Below are positions 5,934-12,742 of a stretch of 14,825 nucleotides of DNA, piece after piece. The position numbers and the translations under genes were made by a program. Each line of letters opens with the position of its first letter. Position 1 is the first letter of the stretch. This DNA is from Escherichia coli (GTDB lineage: Bacteria > Pseudomonadota > Gammaproteobacteria > Enterobacterales > Enterobacteriaceae), in the NCBI RefSeq assembly GCF_044324875.1, contig NZ_CP172189.1, one strand, 5' to 3'. Below the pieces are notes generated by a model. That model saw only the letters and a program-made list of their open reading frames with translations. It did no database searches and was not told the origin of the DNA.

Positions 5934-7487
5934 TTACCATCCCAGCGACGGGCCATCCAGTGTCCGTTCCTGTATTTCCAGATGGCGCTCACGCTCTAGG
6001 AATAGCTCATGTTCACGTTCCTGTATCAGTAGTTCGTCCCTTATCTCCTGCTCTCGCTGTATAACTGGCTCAAGTGTTCTGTCTGCTCGCTCAAGTGCTG
6101 CACCTGCTGACTCAACTGCATGACCCGCTCGTTCAGCATCGCGTTGTCCCGTTGCGTAAGCGAAAACATCTTCTGCAATTCCACGAAGGCGCTCTCCCAT
6201 TCGTTCAGCCGCTGCATATAGTCCTGTTGCAGCTGCTCTAAGGCGTTCAGCAAATGTGTTTCCAGCTCTGTCACTCTGTGTCACTCCTTCAGATGTACCC
6301 ACTCTTTCCCCTGAAAGGGAATCACCTCTGCTGATTTCCCGTACGGAAGGACCAGAAATTTCCTGTTCCCGTCCTGCACGAACTCCACGCCCCATGTCTT
6401 CGCGTTCAGTTTCTGCAATGTCTCTTCCTGCTTCCTGATATCTTCCAGGTTCGCCTGTATCCTCCCGCCAAGATACCAGAGCGTCCCGCCACTCGCGGTA
6501 AACAGGAGAAAGACTATCCCCAGTAACATCATGCCCGTATTCCCTGCCAGCTTTAACACGTCCTTCCTGTGCTGCCTCATCGCCTCTTTCACCCCTTCCC
6601 GGTGTTTCTCCAGCGATTCCTCTGTCGAGGCTGTGAACAGGGCTATAGCGTCTCTGATTTTCGTCTCGTTTGATGTCACAGCCTCGCTTACAGATTCGCC
6701 GAGCCTCCTGAACTCGTTGTTCAGCACTTTCTCTGTAGATTCGGCTCTCTCTTTCAGCTTTTTCTCGAACTCCGCGCCCGTCTGTAAAAGATTGCTCATA
6801 AAACGCTCCTTTCAGCCTGATATTCTTCCCGCCGTTCGGGTCTGCAATGCTGATGCTGCTTCGCGTCACCCTGACCACTTCAAGCCCCGCCTCTGTGAGC
6901 GCCTGAATCACATCCTGACGGCCTTTTATCTCCCCTACATGATAAAGAGCGTCTATCCCGCGTGTGACGCTCTCAGCAAGCGCCTGTTTCGTTTCCGGCA
7001 GGTTATCAGAGAGAGTCAGTATCCGGCGGTTCTCCGGGGCGTTGGGGTCATGCAGCCCGTAATGGTGATTCACCAGCGTCTGCCAGGCATCAATTCTCGG
7101 CCTGTCTGCCCGGTCGTAGTACGGCTGGAGACGTTTTCCGGTCTGTAGCTCCATGTTCGGAATGACAAAATTCAGCTCAAGCCGTCCCTTGTCCTGGTGC
7201 TCCACCCACAGGATGCTGTACTGATTCTTTTCGAGACCTGGCATCAGTACGCGCTCAAAGCTCGCCATCACTTTTTCACGTCCTCCCGGCGGCAGCTCCT
7301 TCTCCGCGAACGACAGAACGCCTGACGTGTATTTCTTCGCAAATGGCGTGGCATCGATGAGTTCCCGGACTTCTTCCGGATTACCCTGAAGCACCGTTGC
7401 GCCTTCGCGGTTACGCTCCCTCCCCAGCAGGTAATCAACCGGACCACTGCCACCACCTTTTCCCCTGGCATGAAATTTAACTATCAT
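5934..7487 (-). CDS. mbeA: ColE1-type mobilisation relaxase MbeA (MOB-HEN family), 517 aa
   Basis: MIVKFHARGKGGGSGPVDYLLGRERNREGATVLQGNPEEVRELIDA... is the MbeA N-terminal relaxase domain; the C-terminal half is Arg/Glu-rich. The ORF-track start (7535) is a 16-codon upstream extension; the true ATG is at 7487 and overlaps the mbeC stop. Confidence 0.9.
   Translation of the reverse strand: MIVKFHARGKGGGSGPVDYLLGRERNREGATVLQGNPEEVRELIDATPFAKKYTSGVLSFAEKELPPGGREKVMASFERVLMPGLEKNQYSILWVEHQDKGRLELNFVIPNMELQTGKRLQPYYDRADRPRIDAWQTLVNHHYGLHDPNAPENRRILTLSDNLPETKQALAESVTRGIDALYHVGEIKGRQDVIQALTEAGLEVVRVTRSSISIADPNGGKNIRLKGAFYEQSFTDGRGVREKAERESRIYRESAEQRVQEARRICKRGCDIKRDENQRRYSPVHSLDRGIAGETPGRGERGDEAAQEGRVKAGREYGHDVTGDSLSPVYREWRDALVSWREDTGEPGRYQEAGRDIAETEREDMGRGVRAGREQEISGPSVREISRGDSLSGERVGTSEGVTQSDRAGNTFAERLRAAATGLYAAAERMGERLRGIAEDVFAYATGQRDAERAGHAVESAGAALERADRTLEPVIQREQEIRDELLIQEREHELFLERERHLEIQERTLDGPSLGW
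6041..6274 (-). CDS. mbeD: MbeD, 77-aa mobilisation protein nested inside mbeA in another frame; GTG start
   Basis: MTELETHLLNALEQLQQDYMQRLNEWESAF...; GAAGGAG ribosome-binding site 9 nt upstream of GTG at 6274; same arrangement as the ColE1 mob region. Confidence 0.7.
   Translation of the reverse strand: MTELETHLLNALEQLQQDYMQRLNEWESAFVELQKMFSLTQRDNAMLNERVMQLSQQVQHLSEQTEHLSQLYSESRR
6281..6799 (-). CDS. mbeB: MbeB, 172-aa mobilisation protein with one predicted TM segment, nested inside mbeA in another frame
   Basis: MSNLLQTGAEFEKKLKERAESTEK...MMLLGIVFLLFTASGGTLWYLGG...; AAGGAG ribosome-binding site 8 nt upstream of ATG at 6799. Confidence 0.75.
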   Translation of the reverse strand: MSNLLQTGAEFEKKLKERAESTEKVLNNEFRRLGESVSEAVTSNETKIRDAIALFTASTEESLEKHREGVKEAMRQHRKDVLKLAGNTGMMLLGIVFLLFTASGGTLWYLGGRIQANLEDIRKQEETLQKLNAKTWGVEFVQDGNRKFLVLPYGKSAEVIPFQGKEWVHLKE

Positions 7488-7824
7488 CCCGCGCCCCCTG
7501 TTCCCTGACGGCCAGACGCAGCCGGCGCAGCTCATCCCCGATGGCCATCAGTGCGGCCACCACCTGAACCCGATCACCGGAAGACCACTGCCCGCTGTTC
7601 ACCTTCCTCGCGGTCTGATTCAGGTTATTCCCGATGGCGGCCAGCTGACGCAGTAACGGCGGTGCCAGTGTCGGCAGCTTCCCGGAACGGGCAACCGGCT
7701 CCCCCAGGCAGACCCGCCGCATCCATACCGCCAGTTGTTTACCCTCACAGCGTTCCAGTAACCGGGCATGTTCATCATCAGTAACCCGTATCGTGAGCAT
7801 CCTCTCGCGTTTCATCGGTATCAT
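7477..7824 (-). CDS. mbeC: MbeC/MobC-type relaxosome accessory protein (ribbon-helix-helix)
   Basis: ...MLTIRVTDDEHARLLERCEGKQLAVWMRRVCLGEPVARSGKLPT...; stop overlaps the mbeA start. Start codon uncertain (ATG at 7833, 7824, 7815 or 7800); copy C lacks the 7833 start in frame. Confidence 0.85.
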   Translation of the reverse strand: MIPMKRERMLTIRVTDDEHARLLERCEGKQLAVWMRRVCLGEPVARSGKLPTLAPPLLRQLAAIGNNLNQTARKVNSGQWSSGDRVQVVAALMAIGDELRRLRLAVREQGARDDS

Positions 7825-7864
7825 TACCCCCATGAACAGAAATCCCCCTTACACGGAGGCATCA

Positions 7865-8056
7865 GTGACTAAACAGGAAAAAACCGCCCTTAACATGGCC
7901 CGCTTCATCAGAGGCCAGACATTAACGCTGCTGGAGAAACTCAACGAACTGGACGTGGATGAACAGGCAGATATCTGTGAATCGCTTCACGACCACGCCG
8001 ATGAGCTTTACCGCAGCTGCCTCGCACGTTTCGGGGATGACGGTGAAAACCTCTGA
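7865..8056 (+). CDS. rop: Rop/Rom, 63-aa RNA I-RNA II pairing modulator (four-helix bundle); GTG start
   Basis: V/MTKQEKTALNMARFIRGQTLTLLEKLNELDVDEQADICESLHDHADELYRSCLARFGDDGENL; GGAGG ribosome-binding site at 7855-7859. The ORF-track entry 7793-8056 is an upstream in-frame extension. Confidence 0.9.
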   Translation: MTKQEKTALNMARFIRGQTLTLLEKLNELDVDEQADICESLHDHADELYRSCLARFGDDGENL

Positions 8057-8164
8057 CACATGCAGCTCCCGGAGACGGACACAGCTTGTCTGTGAGCGGA
8101 TGCCGGGAGCAGACAAGCCCGTCAGGGCGCGTCAGCAGGTGTTAGCGGGTGTCGGGGCGCAGCC

Positions 8165-8260
8165 CTGACCCAGTCACGTAGCGATAGCGGAGTGTATACT
8201 AGCTTAACTATGCGGCATCAGTGCGGATTGTATGAAAAGTGCACCATAGCCGATGTGAAA
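8165..8260. other. oriT/bom (basis of mobility) region of module B with the nic-site motif
   Basis: cagtcacgtagcgatagcggagtgtatactAgcttaactatgcggc matches the pBR322/ColE1 bom nic region, between rop and the origin. Confidence 0.7.
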
Positions 8261-8439
8261 TGCCGCACAGATGCGTAAGGAGAAAATGCAACTTCCGACA
8301 CTCTTCCGCTTCCTCGCTCACTGACTCGCTACGCTCGGTCGTTCGGCTGCGGCGAGCGGTACCGGCGCACTCAAAGGCGGTAATACGGTTATCCACAGAA
8401 TCAGGGGAGAAGGCCGGAAAGAACATGTGAGCAAAAAGG

Positions 8440-9030
8440 CAAAGGCCAACGAAAGGCCGCGCCGCTGGCGTTTTTCCATAGGCTCCGCCCCCCTGACGAG
8501 CATCACAAAAATCGACGCTCAAGTCAGAGGTGGCGAAACCCGACAGGACTATAAAGATACCAGGCGTTTCCCCCTGGAAGCTCCCTCGTGCGCTCTCCTG
8601 TTCCGACCCTGCCGCTTACCGGATACCTGTCCGCCTTTCTCCCTTCGGGAAGCGTGGCGCTTTCTCATAGCTCACGCTGTTGGTATCTCGGCTTGGTGTA
8701 GGTCGTTCGCTCCAAGCTGGGCTGTGTGCACGAACCCCCCGTTCAGCCCGACCGCTGCGCCTTATCCGGTAACTATCGTCTTGAGTCCAACCCGGTAAGG
8801 CACGCCTTAACGCCACTGGCAGCAGCCACTGGTAACCGGATTAGCAGAGCGATGATGGCACAAACGGTGCTACAGAGTTCTTGAAGTAGTGGCCCGACTA
8901 CGGCTACACTGAAAGGACAGTATTTGGTATCTGCGCTCTGCTGAAGCCAGTTACCTTGGTTAAGCAGTTCCCCAACTGACCTAACCTTCGATCAAACCGC
9001 CTCCCCAGGCGGTTTTTTCGTTTACAGGCA
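8440..9030 (-). other. ColE1-type origin of replication, copy B (RNA II primer region, transcribed on the minus strand)
   Basis: Near-identity to the pMB1/pBR322 ori body (ggcgtttttccataggctccgcccccctgacgagcatcacaaaaatcgacgctcaagtcagaggtggcgaaacccgacaggactataaagataccaggcg...). Confidence 0.9.
8917..9024 (+). ncRNA. RNA I of origin copy B, with stem-loops 2 and 3 different from copy A
   Basis: Starts acagtatttggtatctgcgctctgctgaagccagttacctt as in copy A, then diverges (ggttaagcagttccccaactgacctaaccttcgatcaaaccgcctccccaggcggttttttcgttt). RNA II promoter follows at 9026-9075 on the minus strand. Confidence 0.75.
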
Positions 9031-9080
9031 GCAGATTACGCGCAGAAAAAAAGGATCTCAAGAAGATCCTTTTAACTTTT

Positions 9081-9221
9081 CTACTGAACCGCGATCCCCG
9101 TCAGTTTAGAAGAGGAGGATGGTGCGACAGTCCCTCCCTGAACATCGCGGATGTAATTAGCTTGGCAGCCTGATAGCAAAGCCATCAAGACAAGCATCCC
9201 TCCTGATAATATCATTTTCAT
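9081..9221 (-). CDS. Colicin lysis (release) lipoprotein, 46 aa, of the second colicin locus
   Basis: Hand-translated [46 protein letters not shown]; lipobox LLSGC; GAGG ribosome-binding site upstream. Mature part almost identical to Kil of module A. Confidence 0.8.
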
Positions 9222-9340
9222 ATATTCCCTCATTAACACATACCCCTAATCTTAGGATGACCATTACTTGTACAGCATGATATGCTTATACACATCTACA
9301 ACTAAATTAATAATAATGAAAAGCTTGGAGAGTTATACCA

Positions 9341-9865
9341 ATGAGAAAAGAGCACACTGACAATAAAGATTTAAACAGGACGCTTTTTTTGATTACTTTT
9401 GCAGGCATAACACCATTAATCATTATTTTTATAACTTATACATCAAACCCCAAGTTCTATTTAATTAGCATCATTTTTGATAACACACAAAATATACCTT
9501 CAATAATTTCCGCATACAATCCTGTGATGACAAAGGTGATGGATATCTACGGGAAAAGCGCTCCCTTACTGGCACTTATTGCTTTTACTCTCCAACTCCG
9601 CGACAGAAAGCTAGAGACAATAGCCAACAGAGAAAAACTAATTACTGCCAGCATATTTAGTCCATTTTTTTATGCTTTTTATGCATATTTCTTTCTGTGG
9701 AATAATTTCGAATTAACCACTGCAGGTAGGACTGTCAGATGGATGTCCGATAATGATTTTACTTTGTTTATTTTTTACGCCTGCCTCTATTTTTGCTCTT
9801 TCTTTATGACTTATGCTCTGTGTTATATTCCGGTTGTGTCATATAAACTCTGGAAAGAAAGGTAG
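9341..9865 (+). CDS. Immunity protein for an A-type pore-forming colicin (colicin A/B/N/U/Y class), 174 aa, four predicted TM helices
   Basis: 174-aa aromatic-rich protein with four hydrophobic segments, convergent with a colicin pore-domain remnant and next to a lysis gene; GGAGA ribosome-binding site at 9325-9329. Which colicin it serves cannot be decided from memory. Confidence 0.75.
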   Translation: MRKEHTDNKDLNRTLFLITFAGITPLIIIFITYTSNPKFYLISIIFDNTQNIPSIISAYNPVMTKVMDIYGKSAPLLALIAFTLQLRDRKLETIANREKLITASIFSPFFYAFYAYFFLWNNFELTTAGRTVRWMSDNDFTLFIFYACLYFCSFFMTYALCYIPVVSYKLWKER

Positions 9866-9882
9866 TCTTCTTGACTACCTTT
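9860..9882. terminator. Bidirectional terminator-like hairpin between the convergent immunity and colicin genes
   Basis: AGGTAGTC-ttctt-GACTACCT followed by TTT on the plus strand and by TTT/CTTT on the minus strand. Confidence 0.5.
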
Positions 9883-9892
9883 CGACTCTAGG

Positions 9893-10103
9893 TTAATACG
9901 CAGGGCGAATAATTTCGTTATTTAACCTGTCTATAAATTTGTCATCAATCAATGCTCCAATAAAACTGGCTATAATAATACCGATAATCCCTACGACTGC
10001 AGCTGATGCCCCCACAGCAAGCAGGTAAGCTCCAAGGGTGGCAGAAAAAATAGCAAGAGCCACAGCAGAAGCAATACCACTGACAACCCAGGACTCGACC
10101 TCC
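9893..10103 (-). pseudogene. 3' remnant (~69 codons) of a pore-forming colicin gene: hydrophobic hairpin and C-terminus of the channel domain; the 5' part is replaced by an IS21-family element
   Basis: ...EVESWVVSGIASAVALAIFSATLGAYLLAVGASAAVVGIIGIIIASFIGALIDDKFIDRLNNEIIRPAY resembles the C-terminal hairpin and end of colicin channel domains (compare the colicin E1 C-terminus in this window). Upstream codons of the track ORF (MMPNCDRRWMPNHDRF...) come from IS terminal repeats. Confidence 0.6.
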
Positions 10104-10123
10104 TGCAAAATGGCATCTGAATC

Positions 10124-10232
10124 GATCGCAGTTTGGCATTCGAATCGATCATGATTTGGCATCCATCTCCGATCACAGTTTGGCATCACAATCGATCACG
10201 ATTTGGCATGCTTCCGATCATTGATTGGCATC
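10124..10232 (+). repeat. Five direct repeats (~23-bp period) of CGATCANNRTTTGGCAT at the IS left end; likely transposase binding sites
   Basis: Copies at 10124-10140, 10147-10163, 10171-10187, 10194-10210 and 10216-10232, with related copies in inverted orientation at the right end (12680-12730). Confidence 0.7.
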
Positions 10233-10305
10233 CTGCCAGTCACTCCGGGAATTAACTCTTTTCACCACAGTCTCCATTGCCGTGTTTAAACCAGTGGAGA
10301 CGTCA

Positions 10306-11871
10306 ATGTCCAGAAAGAGAAAATCCAGGAGCACTATGGAAACCTGTTTTAAGATCCTTCAGCTCAAGTTCGACAAGAAGCTGACTAACCGTTGTATCGG
10401 ACTGACGTTACACATCAGCGCCTCAACCGTTTTTGAGGTTCTTGCCCGCTTCAAAGCCTCTTCTCTGTCATGGCCATTACCTGCTGATATATCCCATGAC
10501 ACGCTGGAGAAACTCATTTTTCCGCCCAAAGACACCTTTGCATCAGAGCTTGTAATGCCTGACATGTTGTACTTCGATACGGAAATGAGAAAACCAGGTG
10601 TGACGCGGCAACTGTTGTGGATGGAATACAAGGCACAGGCGGGTAACAAAGCGATGGGATACTCGCACTTCTGCCGTTGCTACCGGGAGTGGAAAAAAAC
10701 GCGACGTCTCTCCATGCGCCAGGAGCATCGTGCCGGCGAAAAGCTTTTTATCGACTTCTGTGGTCCTACGGTTCCTGTTATTAATCCGGACACCGGTGAG
10801 ATACGCCGCGTGGCAATCTTCGTGGCCGTAATGGGGGCGTCCAACTATACCTACGTTGAAGCGTGCGAAGGTCAGGACATGATGTCATGGTTAAATGCCC
10901 ACAGCCGTTGCCTGACCTTCCTGGGCGGCGTACCGAAGCTGCTCATCCCCGATAACCTCAGAAGCGCAGTGAAAAAGGCCGATCGATATGAGCCTGTCAT
11001 CAACGACAGTTATCAGGCACTGGCTGAGCACTATGGCACGGTTATCATCCCGGCCCGACCACGCAAACCTAAAGATAAACCAAAAGCAGAAAACGGCGTC
11101 CTCATCGTTGAACGATGGCTTCTTGCCCGCATCCGTAATGAAACCTTCCACACGCTCAGGGCGCTGAATGCGCGCCTTAGGGAGTTACTGACAGACATGA
11201 ATAACCGGCCAATGAAGGGGTACGGCAATCAAACCCGTGCAGAACGCTTCCGCATACTGGATGCGCCAGCACTCTCTCCGCTGCCTCTGGCACCTTATGA
11301 ATACACGGAATACAAAGCTGTGAAGGTTGGCCCTGACTACCACGTTGAATATGCCCGTCACTGGTACTCCGTTCCACACGAACTGGTCGGTCAGCGTCTG
11401 TCACTGAAGGCGGGGCAGTCGGTGGTACAGCTCTGGCACAAGGGGCAGTGTGTGGCGCAACATCCGCGCAGCACACATGAATATAAACACACAACCAATC
11501 CGCTTCACATGCCAGAGCGCCACCGGCAGCACGGGACATGGACACCGGAACGCCTGATCGAGCAGGGAAAACGTACGGGCCCGTCCACAGGCCGGGTGGT
11601 TGAATCCATGCTGAAGGCAAAACCCCATCCGGAACTGGCTTATCGTGCAGTTCTGGGGCTGCTGGCACTTCAGAAAAAATACGGCCCGGAACGGCTGGAA
11701 AAGGCCTGTTACGTTGCCCTGCACTATAACGCCCCTGACAGACGCTTTATCGACAATCTGCTGCGTCACCATCGGGAGAACCTGGAGCTTCCATTATCCC
11801 GCCAGGGCGAACAACATCCGGCATATGCTTCAGAGCATGAAAACCTGCGTGGTCCGGGCTACTACCACTGA
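10306..11871 (+). CDS. istA: IS21-family transposase IstA, 521 aa from ATG at 10306
   Basis: N-terminal HTH region, DDE-type catalytic core, typical IstA length; GGAGA ribosome-binding site 7 nt upstream. The track start at 10225 is a TTG inside the terminal repeats and is unlikely to be real. Confidence 0.85.
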   Translation: MSRKRKSRSTMETCFKILQLKFDKKLTNRCIGLTLHISASTVFEVLARFKASSLSWPLPADISHDTLEKLIFPPKDTFASELVMPDMLYFDTEMRKPGVTRQLLWMEYKAQAGNKAMGYSHFCRCYREWKKTRRLSMRQEHRAGEKLFIDFCGPTVPVINPDTGEIRRVAIFVAVMGASNYTYVEACEGQDMMSWLNAHSRCLTFLGGVPKLLIPDNLRSAVKKADRYEPVINDSYQALAEHYGTVIIPARPRKPKDKPKAENGVLIVERWLLARIRNETFHTLRALNARLRELLTDMNNRPMKGYGNQTRAERFRILDAPALSPLPLAPYEYTEYKAVKVGPDYHVEYARHWYSVPHELVGQRLSLKAGQSVVQLWHKGQCVAQHPRSTHEYKHTTNPLHMPERHRQHGTWTPERLIEQGKRTGPSTGRVVESMLKAKPHPELAYRAVLGLLALQKKYGPERLEKACYVALHYNAPDRRFIDNLLRHHRENLELPLSRQGEQHPAYASEHENLRGPGYYH

Positions 11872-11886
11872 CAGAAGGAACAACAG

Positions 11887-12643
11887 TATGAGTGATAACC
11901 TGTTAAACAAACTGACCCAACTGAAACTCCCGGCGATGGCCGGGAGCCTGATACGGCAGCGGGAAACGCCTCAGACCTACGACGAACTGTCGTTCGAGGA
12001 AAGGCTGACGCTGCTGGTTGATGACGAGCTTCTGAGCAGGGAAAACAGCCGTGTGGCACGGTTGAGAAAAAATGCCGGCCTGAAATACCAGGCAACACCG
12101 GAAGGGCTGCGCTATCCGGCCTCAAGAGGTCTGCGGGCTGAACAGATGAGAGAACTGCTGAACGGCCACTACATAACCCACAGGAAAAACCTGCTGATAA
12201 CCGGTCCGACAGGATGTGGCAAGAGCTGGATAGCCAATGCGCTGGGCGAACAGGCATGTCGACAGAAACACAGCGTCCGGTACTGTAGAACCGGGCGATT
12301 ACTGGAACAACTGGCTCAGGGACGTGTTGATGGCAGCTGGCTGAAATATCTGAAACAGTTGCAAAAAATACAGGTTCTAATCCTGGACGATCTGGGGCTG
12401 GAACAGTTAAGTAACGCCCAGTGTAATGACCTTCTGGAGCTCATAGAGGATCGTTACGGACAAAGCAGCACGATAGTGGTAAGCCAGTTCCCGGTAGATA
12501 AATGGCATGGTCTGATGGAGAACCCAACAACAGCAGATGCCATCCTGGACAGACTGGTACATAACTCACACCGAGTGGTCCTTCAGGGAGAGTCACTGAG
12601 GAAAAATCCCCCGGTAGTGGAAAGCAGCGAAAAAACGCGTTAA
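11887..12643 (+). CDS. istB: IS21-family ATP-binding helper IstB (AAA+), 251 aa
   Basis: MSDNLLNKLTQLKLPAMAGSL..., Walker A GPTGCGKS, Walker B ILILDDLG; GAAGGAA ribosome-binding site. The track ORF 11645-12643 is an upstream extension overlapping istA. Confidence 0.9.
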
Positions 12644-12742
12644 AAAGCGGTAGAAAAAGTTAAGTTCCCGGTTGATCGAATGGATGCGAATCGCTGATCG
12701 GACTTCGATGCCAATCCGTGATCGAATAGAGCGGAATACGCA

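Follow-up and report, generated by a model that had tools for sequence, protein, structure and literature searches.

The locus described here is what is left of the operon for colicin Y, an A-type pore-forming colicin (cya-cyi-cyl). It lies on a plasmid that, as judged by its sequence, is a fusion of a ColE1 plasmid with a pColY plasmid of the pB771 type. Our joint best explanation, to which we give a probability of about 0.8, is that on this fusion plasmid the immunity gene cyi is working, the colicin gene remnant cya' is dead and the lysis gene cyl is silent, and that an insertion sequence (IS) joined the two parental plasmids before a deletion by Xer recombination at cer. The window, meaning the whole stretch of 14,825 bp that was analysed, is a complete circular plasmid in circularly permuted form, as was found by self-comparison and by comparison with complete plasmids; its end and its start are neighbouring bases in a 6,647-bp ColE1 plasmid. 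Both the fusion and the junction between cya' and the IS are known from a single assembly.

The colicin Y operon remnant

The following features make up the remnant, each given with the evidence used to assign it.

9081-9221, minus strand: cyl, intact gene for the 46-aa lysis lipoprotein of colicin Y, operon promoter lost (Pfam, identity)
9287-9317, plus strand: candidate constitutive immunity promoter with sigma-70-like hexamers, TATACA/TACACA and AATAAT (consensus scan)
9341-9865, plus strand: cyi (PGAP name cui), the 174-aa colicin Y immunity gene, intact (Pfam, identity to the pB771 protein)
9857-9883, no strand assigned: hairpin with an 11-bp stem between the convergent ends of cyi and cya, overlapping the cyi stop codon (RNA fold)
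9893-10103, minus strand: cya', the stop, the last 69 codons and 1 base of the colicin Y gene, which has 629 codons when complete (identity with the Cya tail in pB771 and pCol-Let)

From position 8900 to 10103, a base-by-base comparison of the window with the colicin Y plasmid pB771_9494 gave 100% identity (0 differences in 1,204 bases). When positions 8900-10107 were searched against PLSDB by megablast, 11 small plasmids from E. coli and E. marmotae were matched at 97.7-99.9%, including the type plasmid pCol-Let, and these carry cya for colicin Y, cui for immunity and a lysis gene. The gene layout in the window, with cyl on the minus strand, cyi on the plus strand and cya' on the minus strand, is that of the intact pB771 and pCol-Let operons. 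As expected for A-type immunity proteins, cyi is flanked by the colicin gene on one side and the lysis gene on the other and is read from the strand opposite to both.

Cyi matches the Pfam family Colicin_im (PF03857, E 8e-39) over residues 41-174, and Kyte-Doolittle analysis gave four hydrophobic segments at approximately 14-36, 66-86, 100-121 and 139-168, the second of which is short, with 14 uncharged residues. The protein is identical to Cui/Cyi of pB771_9494, under an accession (WP_021534853.1) that is likewise annotated on the plasmid of E. coli MP1, and it is identical to the pCol-Let Cyi at 173 of 174 residues, L39F being the sole change. Cyl matches the Pfam family Lysis_col (PF02402, E 1e-23), has the lipobox LSGC (LLSGC) with the cysteine that takes the acyl group in this family, and is identical to the lysis proteins of pB771 and pCol-Let (annotated as WP_010892547.1). 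No family was found in NCBIfam for Cyi, Cyl or the cya' remnant, and the remnant alone gave no significant match in Pfam, where it fell below every colicin threshold. The identity of the three was settled by their identity to annotated proteins and by the Pfam matches of the full-length genes.

At the left end of the IS21-family element, 560 of the 629 codons of cya are gone, together with its start and SOS promoter. Homology to intact cya ends at 10103 and the IS begins at 10104; an apparent continuation of the pColY homology to 10107 in the megablast alignment was rejected as a chance extension, as there is a mismatch at 10104. What remains of cya covers the end of the pore domain, including its long hydrophobic stretch. 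The complete three-domain ORF (translocation, receptor-binding and pore-forming) is absent, and about two thirds of the pore domain is missing. With 89% of the gene missing, and with it the start codon and the promoter, cya' is non-functional.

The pore domain of the parental Cya was compared with colicin structures, and the strongest matches were to colicins B (1.6e-100), A (4.8e-89), S4 (3.6e-83) and N (4.8e-66), with weaker E-values for the non-A-type colicins Ib (6e-14), Ia (3e-12) and E1 (1e-10). The domain is therefore far closer to colicins B, A, S4 and N than to E1, Ia and Ib, and the label A-type is correct.

An initial annotation of this DNA had proposed an intact gene for a 174-aa immunity protein with four transmembrane segments, an intact lysis lipoprotein gene and a colicin gene of an A-type pore-former reduced to its last ~69 codons (9893-10103). 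All of this is borne out by the comparisons above: the end coordinate of the remnant is exact, with 0 differences from pB771, the pore domain of the parental Cya falls in with those of colicins A, B, N and S4, and the 174-aa protein belongs to an immunity family and not to another. The BLASTP-type comparison that it had suggested, of the immunity protein and the 69-aa remnant against colicin loci, matched both to colicin Y (pB771, pCol-Let).

An open frame of 98 aa was also observed on the minus strand (9893-10189), which starts inside the left end of the IS and runs into the last 69 residues of Cya. We take these residues to comprise helix 10 and the hydrophobic hairpin made by helices 8 and 9, which is the membrane part recognised by A-type immunity proteins. 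If expressed, the 98-aa product could conceivably pair with Cyi in a toxin/antidote-like manner, stabilising the fused plasmid, or could titrate Cyi, a suggestion so speculative that we give it almost no weight.

Predicted expression of the immunity and lysis genes

The sigma-70-like hexamers upstream of cyi lie 24-26 nt before its start, in a region that is 100% identical to pB771; this candidate promoter is a match from a consensus scan, which is by itself no evidence of function. At the other end of the gene, the hairpin at 9857-9883 folds on the minus strand with -19.9 kcal/mol (z -5.3) and is followed by UUUCUUUCC, directly 3' of the cya stop and before cyl. According to the fold prediction, it is terminator-like in both directions. 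As its own upstream region and terminator have been kept, cyi should be constitutively expressed and its product should protect the inner membrane against imported colicin Y.

The DNA of the MP1 plasmid matches window positions 8900-10107 at 99.8%, and its annotation has the same Cyi and Cyl accessions as pB771. When the colicin gene was deleted in E. coli MP1 the strain was still immune, and when cyi was deleted too it became sensitive (PMC7284606). By analogy, the plasmid described here should protect against colicin Y without producing colicin Y.

The cheater state put forward in the initial annotation, in which the cell keeps immunity and no longer makes the toxin, holds as to colicin Y only. 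The same plasmid has an intact colicin E1 operon, and window positions 1-2277 are 100% identical to the ColE1 plasmid NZ_CP116092.1. Going by its gene content, the cell should make colicin E1 and be immune to both E1 and Y, that is, have one toxin and two immunities.

Lysis genes depend for their transcription on the SOS promoter of the colicin gene, which is controlled by LexA and serves both genes. This could not happen for cyl, because the 5' end of cya and the region upstream of it are absent. A LexA-box scan of the whole window gave a sole LexA-box-like site, at 2324-2343 upstream of cea, and none for cyl. Likewise, the consensus scan gave no sigma-70-like site on the cyl strand (minus) across 8900-14000, in keeping with the earlier claim that the lysis gene had lost its native promoter; the scans used simple consensus sequences, which weak or non-sigma-70 promoters may escape. 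With the SOS promoter gone and a strong hairpin in front, cyl is probably silent. The intactness of cyl says nothing about selection, as its flanks are undiverged as well (0 differences).

Another possibility, which we consider improbable, is that cyl is transcribed after all, either by read-through from the mob promoter (via mbeA' and the antisense strand of the IS) or from a promoter that was not recognised, and that it adds leakiness or release of colicin E1. Such transcription would fit with mobC-mbeA' and cyl sharing a strand with no same-strand gene between them, and with the perfect intactness of cyl. However, mbeA' and cyl are separated by about 3.5 kb, which would be transcribed mostly as untranslated antisense RNA, and RNA of this kind is prone to Rho termination. 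There are also five terminator-like hairpins on the cyl strand inside the IS, in addition to the hairpin of -19.9 kcal/mol, and the lack of any promoter-like site on the minus strand between 8900 and 14000 argues against it as well. It is conceivable that a low level of transcription from the mob promoter passes through the IS in antisense and reaches cyl, but this is unlikely.

Fusion of a ColE1 plasmid with a pColY plasmid

The remaining features of the plasmid that bear on its origin are given below.

9-113: second RNAI, of the ColE1-derived origin (Rfam RF00106)
173-2264: intact colicin E1 locus, with kil at 173-310 (minus strand), imm at 358-699 (plus strand) and cea at 696-2264 (minus strand) (identity to ColE1 plasmid)
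3466-3495, minus strand: ColE1 cer core of 30 bp, consisting of the XerC site, an 8-bp spacer and the XerD site (exact match)
8919-9021, plus strand: RNAI of the pColY-derived origin (Rfam RF00106)
10104-12742, plus strand: IS21-family insertion sequence of 2,639 bp with ends TG...CA (NCBIfam, repeats, comparison with other copies)
10336-11871, plus strand: istA, open (start mapped from the annotation of the copy in plasmid p1054c)
11888-12643, plus strand: istB, open (start mapped from the same annotation)
12743-13403, minus strand: mbeA', ColE1 relaxase gene truncated by the right end of the IS, with about 220 N-terminal codons left (NCBIfam profile)

The plasmid can be divided into two parental parts. 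Positions 12743-14825 followed by 1-3462 are 99.95-100% identical to a ColE1 plasmid, in the order mbeA', mobC, rop, ori, kil, imm, cea, exc1 and exc2, and positions 3499-10103 are 99.5% identical to a pB771-type pColY, in the order extra backbone, full mob, rop, ori, cyl, cyi and cya'. Two RNAI genes were found, with scores of 83.4 and 73.8 bits (Rfam gathering threshold 47), which confirms two replication regions. Compared with both parents and the IS, 3,955 bp are missing (6,647 + 9,494 + 2,639 - 14,825). The missing parts are the first 560 codons of cya with the SOS promoter, exc1/exc2 of pColY, one cer, and that part of ColE1 which begins in the 3' half of mbeA and extends to mbeD.

At one junction lies the IS, which scored 284.4 bits with the NCBIfam model for the IS21 transposase (NF033546, cutoff 160) and 256.6 bits with that for IstB (NF038214, cutoff 200). 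Its termini are TGCAAAATGG...GAATACGCA, and its left end contains five direct repeats of ~20 nt (10121-10232), with inverted copies at the right end (12680-12730). The boundaries 10104 and 12742 were set by comparison with two further copies, each flanked by a 6-bp duplication of its target: a chromosomal copy (99.4% identical to the window IS, duplication GTATCC) and the copy in plasmid p1054c (99.85% identical, duplication GCCTGA). A start at 10101, from which many E. coli copies align, was rejected, as the copies with duplicated targets give 10104 and the TCC in front of it is shared by chance. The two break points have TCC(CGC) in common.

In the window, the IS has no target-site duplication, with ACCTCC at its left flank and TCCCGC at its right flank. 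From 12743 onwards the sequence is 100% identical to 6,647-bp ColE1 plasmids, and mbeA' matches positions 1-225 of 497 in the NCBIfam profile relax_MbeA_E1. As there is no target duplication and the right flank is mbeA' and not cya, this is a rearrangement junction and not a simple insertion. The initial annotation was thus right that the 5' part of the toxin gene and its SOS promoter are lost at the left end of an IS21-family element, but this loss looks like the by-product of a plasmid fusion in which ~4 kb disappeared.

Since the alignment with p1054c runs straight through the junction of IS and mbeA, it was considered whether the two plasmids share one event. This was rejected, as the insertion in p1054c is separate, 12 bp away, and has its own GCCTGA duplication. 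A hybrid IS was also considered as a sign that diverged copies had recombined; the window IS is near-identical (99.85%) to the p1054c copy along its full length, and this test is therefore uninformative.

At the second junction, the backbone switches from ColE1 to pColY within 3463-3498, an interval that brackets the cer core: the last difference that discriminates pColY is at 3462, the first that discriminates ColE1 is at 3499, and positions 3496-3700, adjoining the core, are backbone of the pB771 type. On the side of its XerC arm, a cer site has some 200 bp of accessory sequence to which ArgR and PepA bind. The core matches at 30 of 30 positions (0 matches expected by chance) and is present as a single copy in the window. 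In the literature the core sequence was matched mostly by unrelated primers, and one table confirmed that this is the sequence listed for ColE1 cer (PMC2410131). The 36-bp identical block at cer ranks 31st among the 48 exact blocks shared by the parents, of which the longest is 216 bp, and it makes up 36 of 2,943 shared bases. As this is ~1%, a crossover by homology or an error of the assembler would land there ~1% of the time. The position of the junction points to Xer/cer site-specific recombination as its origin.

The two junctions could be explained as follows. The IS21-family element would have joined the two plasmids, either because two copies of it recombined or through a cointegrate of the kind that IS21 forms, and by either route the product would carry the IS twice and also two cer sites as direct repeats. 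In its usual resolution reaction, XerCD would then have recombined these cer sites and excised a circle without an origin, which would have been lost. This circle would have carried the 5' part and promoter of cya, exc1/exc2 of pColY, the ColE1 segment from the 3' end of mbeA to mbeD and the second IS copy, and the end state would be a plasmid with one IS, one cer and two origins.

Both reactions have well-known models, R68.45 being the paradigm for IS21 cointegrate formation and ColE1 multimer resolution that for Xer/cer. The likeness to them lies in an IS21-family element at one junction and a cer core exactly at the other, as both reactions would leave; here, the two are deduced from the sequence of the end product alone. 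Two parental junctions would be expected, one with the IS in cya and one with the IS in mbeA, each with a 6-bp duplication; a search of 5,426 complete E. coli genomes gave neither. In the query for the insertion in cya the last 12 bases were filler and not cya, but a real junction would still have covered 85% of it.

The reverse order would lead to an identical final sequence, again with a single cer where the backbone changes and a single IS that lacks a target duplication. A heterodimer would then have arisen by intermolecular exchange at cer. After this, an IS21-family element already in cya or mbeA would have deleted the adjacent ~4 kb by intramolecular transposition, so that one of the two cer sites was lost and the plasmids could no longer separate. 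In the mbeA of another ColE1 segment, that of p1054c, this IS occurs as a simple insertion at a distance of 12 bp, which makes a pre-existing insertion in mbeA plausible. However, cer and its accessory sequences strongly favour intramolecular resolution in Xer recombination and a heterodimer with two cer sites is short-lived, so that this order needs a disfavoured intermolecular fusion. It also needs an adjacent deletion, which to our knowledge is not a typical documented outcome for IS21-type elements. We consider the reverse order unlikely, although it is the alternative that deserves the most serious thought.

A different kind of explanation is that the 14.8-kb circle is an assembly chimera of separate plasmids, for example pColE1::IS and pColY::IS, in which case cya may be interrupted and not deleted. 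Both junctions, one at the IS and the other at the 36-bp block around cer, do lie in sequence that the parental plasmids have in common, and the exact cya'-IS junction was matched in no other record of PLSDB, the 5,426 complete E. coli genomes, the GTDB representative genomes or the JGI metagenomes. However, an assembler should favour the longer identical blocks over the one at cer, and landing exactly on the core site of a recombinase has a ready biological cause. We therefore hold a chimera to be very improbable. Even in a chimera, the IS would disrupt cya at codon 560/561, and the immunity and lysis genes would still be without a working toxin gene.

Comparison with known systems

The absence of the cya'-IS junction from the four collections and the 100% identity to extant parents indicate a recent and private event. 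Orphan colicin immunity genes are carried by 243 E. coli plasmids, 146 of them for pore-formers, according to a 2025 survey in Nature Communications (PMC12546727). These orphans likewise have an immunity gene without a working cognate toxin, at times beside a heavily truncated bacteriocin gene, whereas here the truncation is private, very recent and next to an intact operon for a different colicin. With 0 differences in 1,204 bases and a private truncation, the locus is a case of 'toxin loss' and gives no evidence of long-term maintenance.

The present plasmid is similar to ColE9-J in having a working operon and a second, decapitated one that keeps its immunity and lysis genes. In ColE9-J (Lau & Condie 1989, Mol Gen Genet 217:269), the operon for colicin E9 reportedly has behind it a colicin E5 gene in truncated form, the E5 immunity gene and a second lysis gene. 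A transposon-like structure is said to be associated with it, and its host reportedly makes one toxin and is immune to two. The colicins of ColE9-J are nucleases and the immunity gene is co-directional in the operon, whereas here both are pore-formers (E1-type and A-type) and the immunity gene, which has a putative promoter of its own, is read from the other strand. In addition, the IS here is intact and the whole partner replicon has been kept.

A laboratory counterpart is the delta-colY derivative of E. coli MP1, which has the same Cyi and Cyl accessions and from which the colicin gene was removed, with production lost and immunity kept (PMC7284606). That change was made by replacement with a kanamycin cassette on the native 8.5-kb plasmid, whereas the one described here is natural and came about through an IS and plasmid fusion. 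In pGF4-D (NZ_CP172221.1), a plasmid of the pColY type, cya is also interrupted by an IS and cui and the lysis gene are left in place. However, the IS is of another family (ISCro1, IS66 family), its site is near the 5' end of cya and the accession of the lysis protein differs. It looks like a simple insertion, with both parts of cya present and no plasmid fusion.

The locus is a clean new instance of a well-known kind of event; its novelty is low and it adds neither a new mechanism nor a new gene family. It does provide a natural case, resolved in full, of a colicin plasmid that has acquired two immunities with one toxin, a state that is the intermediate invoked in models of colicin diversification and for which ColE9-J is an old precedent. 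When bacteriocin genes are surveyed, a match to cyi or cyl need not mean production of colicin Y. It also shows a plausible route, in which an IS21-family element would fuse two ColE1-type plasmids and Xer recombination at cer would trim the result, leaving a stable plasmid that has two origins but a single cer, the junction precisely at cer being a neat mechanistic detail.

Replication regions and the second plasmid-plasmid junction

The window spans an entire circular plasmid that has a single cer site and a single complete mob operon; two ColE1-type replication regions were found in it, 6827-8910 and 12743-14825, which are 95.5% identical over 2.1 kb. The features concerned, with the truncated relaxase gene, are as follows.

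9-113, first RNAI
8919-9021, second RNAI
12660-13451, minus strand, mbeA', the truncated ORF for the relaxase (N-terminal part of mbeA, about 220 codons)

The single 30-bp cer core (3466-3495, minus strand) is bracketed exactly by the interval in which the backbone changes from ColE1-type to pColY-type, a 36-bp identical block at 3463-3498. As the switch brackets the cer core and this block makes up only some 1% of the sequence in which both parents are identical, the sequence comparison points to XerCD recombination having made the second plasmid-plasmid junction. Beyond it, about 2.3 kb of pB771-type backbone (3615-5935) lacks an equivalent in the 6,647-bp ColE1 plasmid, and a transposase fragment is annotated within the corresponding segment in related records.

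Among the plasmids of 12-17.5 kb from chicken E. coli (GPEC), for example NZ_JBUBJK010000004.1 and NZ_JBUBJL010000005.1, several that are ColE1-type and about twice the unit length carry two copies of mbeA. Each could be a dimer, or another heterodimeric fusion comparable to the window plasmid.

The relaxase gene and the break points of the IS

The reading frame of mbeA' extends about 28 codons into the right end of the IS21-family element; mbeA', mobC and the neighbouring ColE1-type region amount to a second, partial mobilisation module of the plasmid. A 99.85% identical copy of the element is present in plasmid p1054c (NZ_JBUBIS010000004.1, 2655-5293), where it lies inside mbeA of another ColE1 segment in the same orientation as in the window, with its GCCTGA duplication 12 bp away from the window break point at 12743. 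Two neighbouring positions in mbeA could possibly reflect an insertion hot spot, or a coincidence.

A short motif is common to both break points of the IS in the window (10098-10103 and 12743-12748), the uninterrupted sequences being GACC-TCC/CGCATT in cya and ATTCT/TCCCGCCGTT in mbeA (slash, break). This motif may have arisen by chance or stem from a preference of the IS for certain targets.

Disruption of the colicin Y gene

At the other end of the element, a 98-aa open frame (9893-10189, minus strand) starts (GTG/ATG) within the IS left end and reads into the last 69 Cya residues, including a long hydrophobic stretch; no visible promoter or convincing ribosome-binding site was found for this frame. 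In the pColY-type plasmid pGF4-D (NZ_CP172221.1, 7846-12171 and 2-241), the colicin Y gene is broken by the IS66-family ISCro1, and cui and a lysis gene are kept. This disruption is natural and independent of that in the window, therefore inactivation of cya by IS elements recurs.
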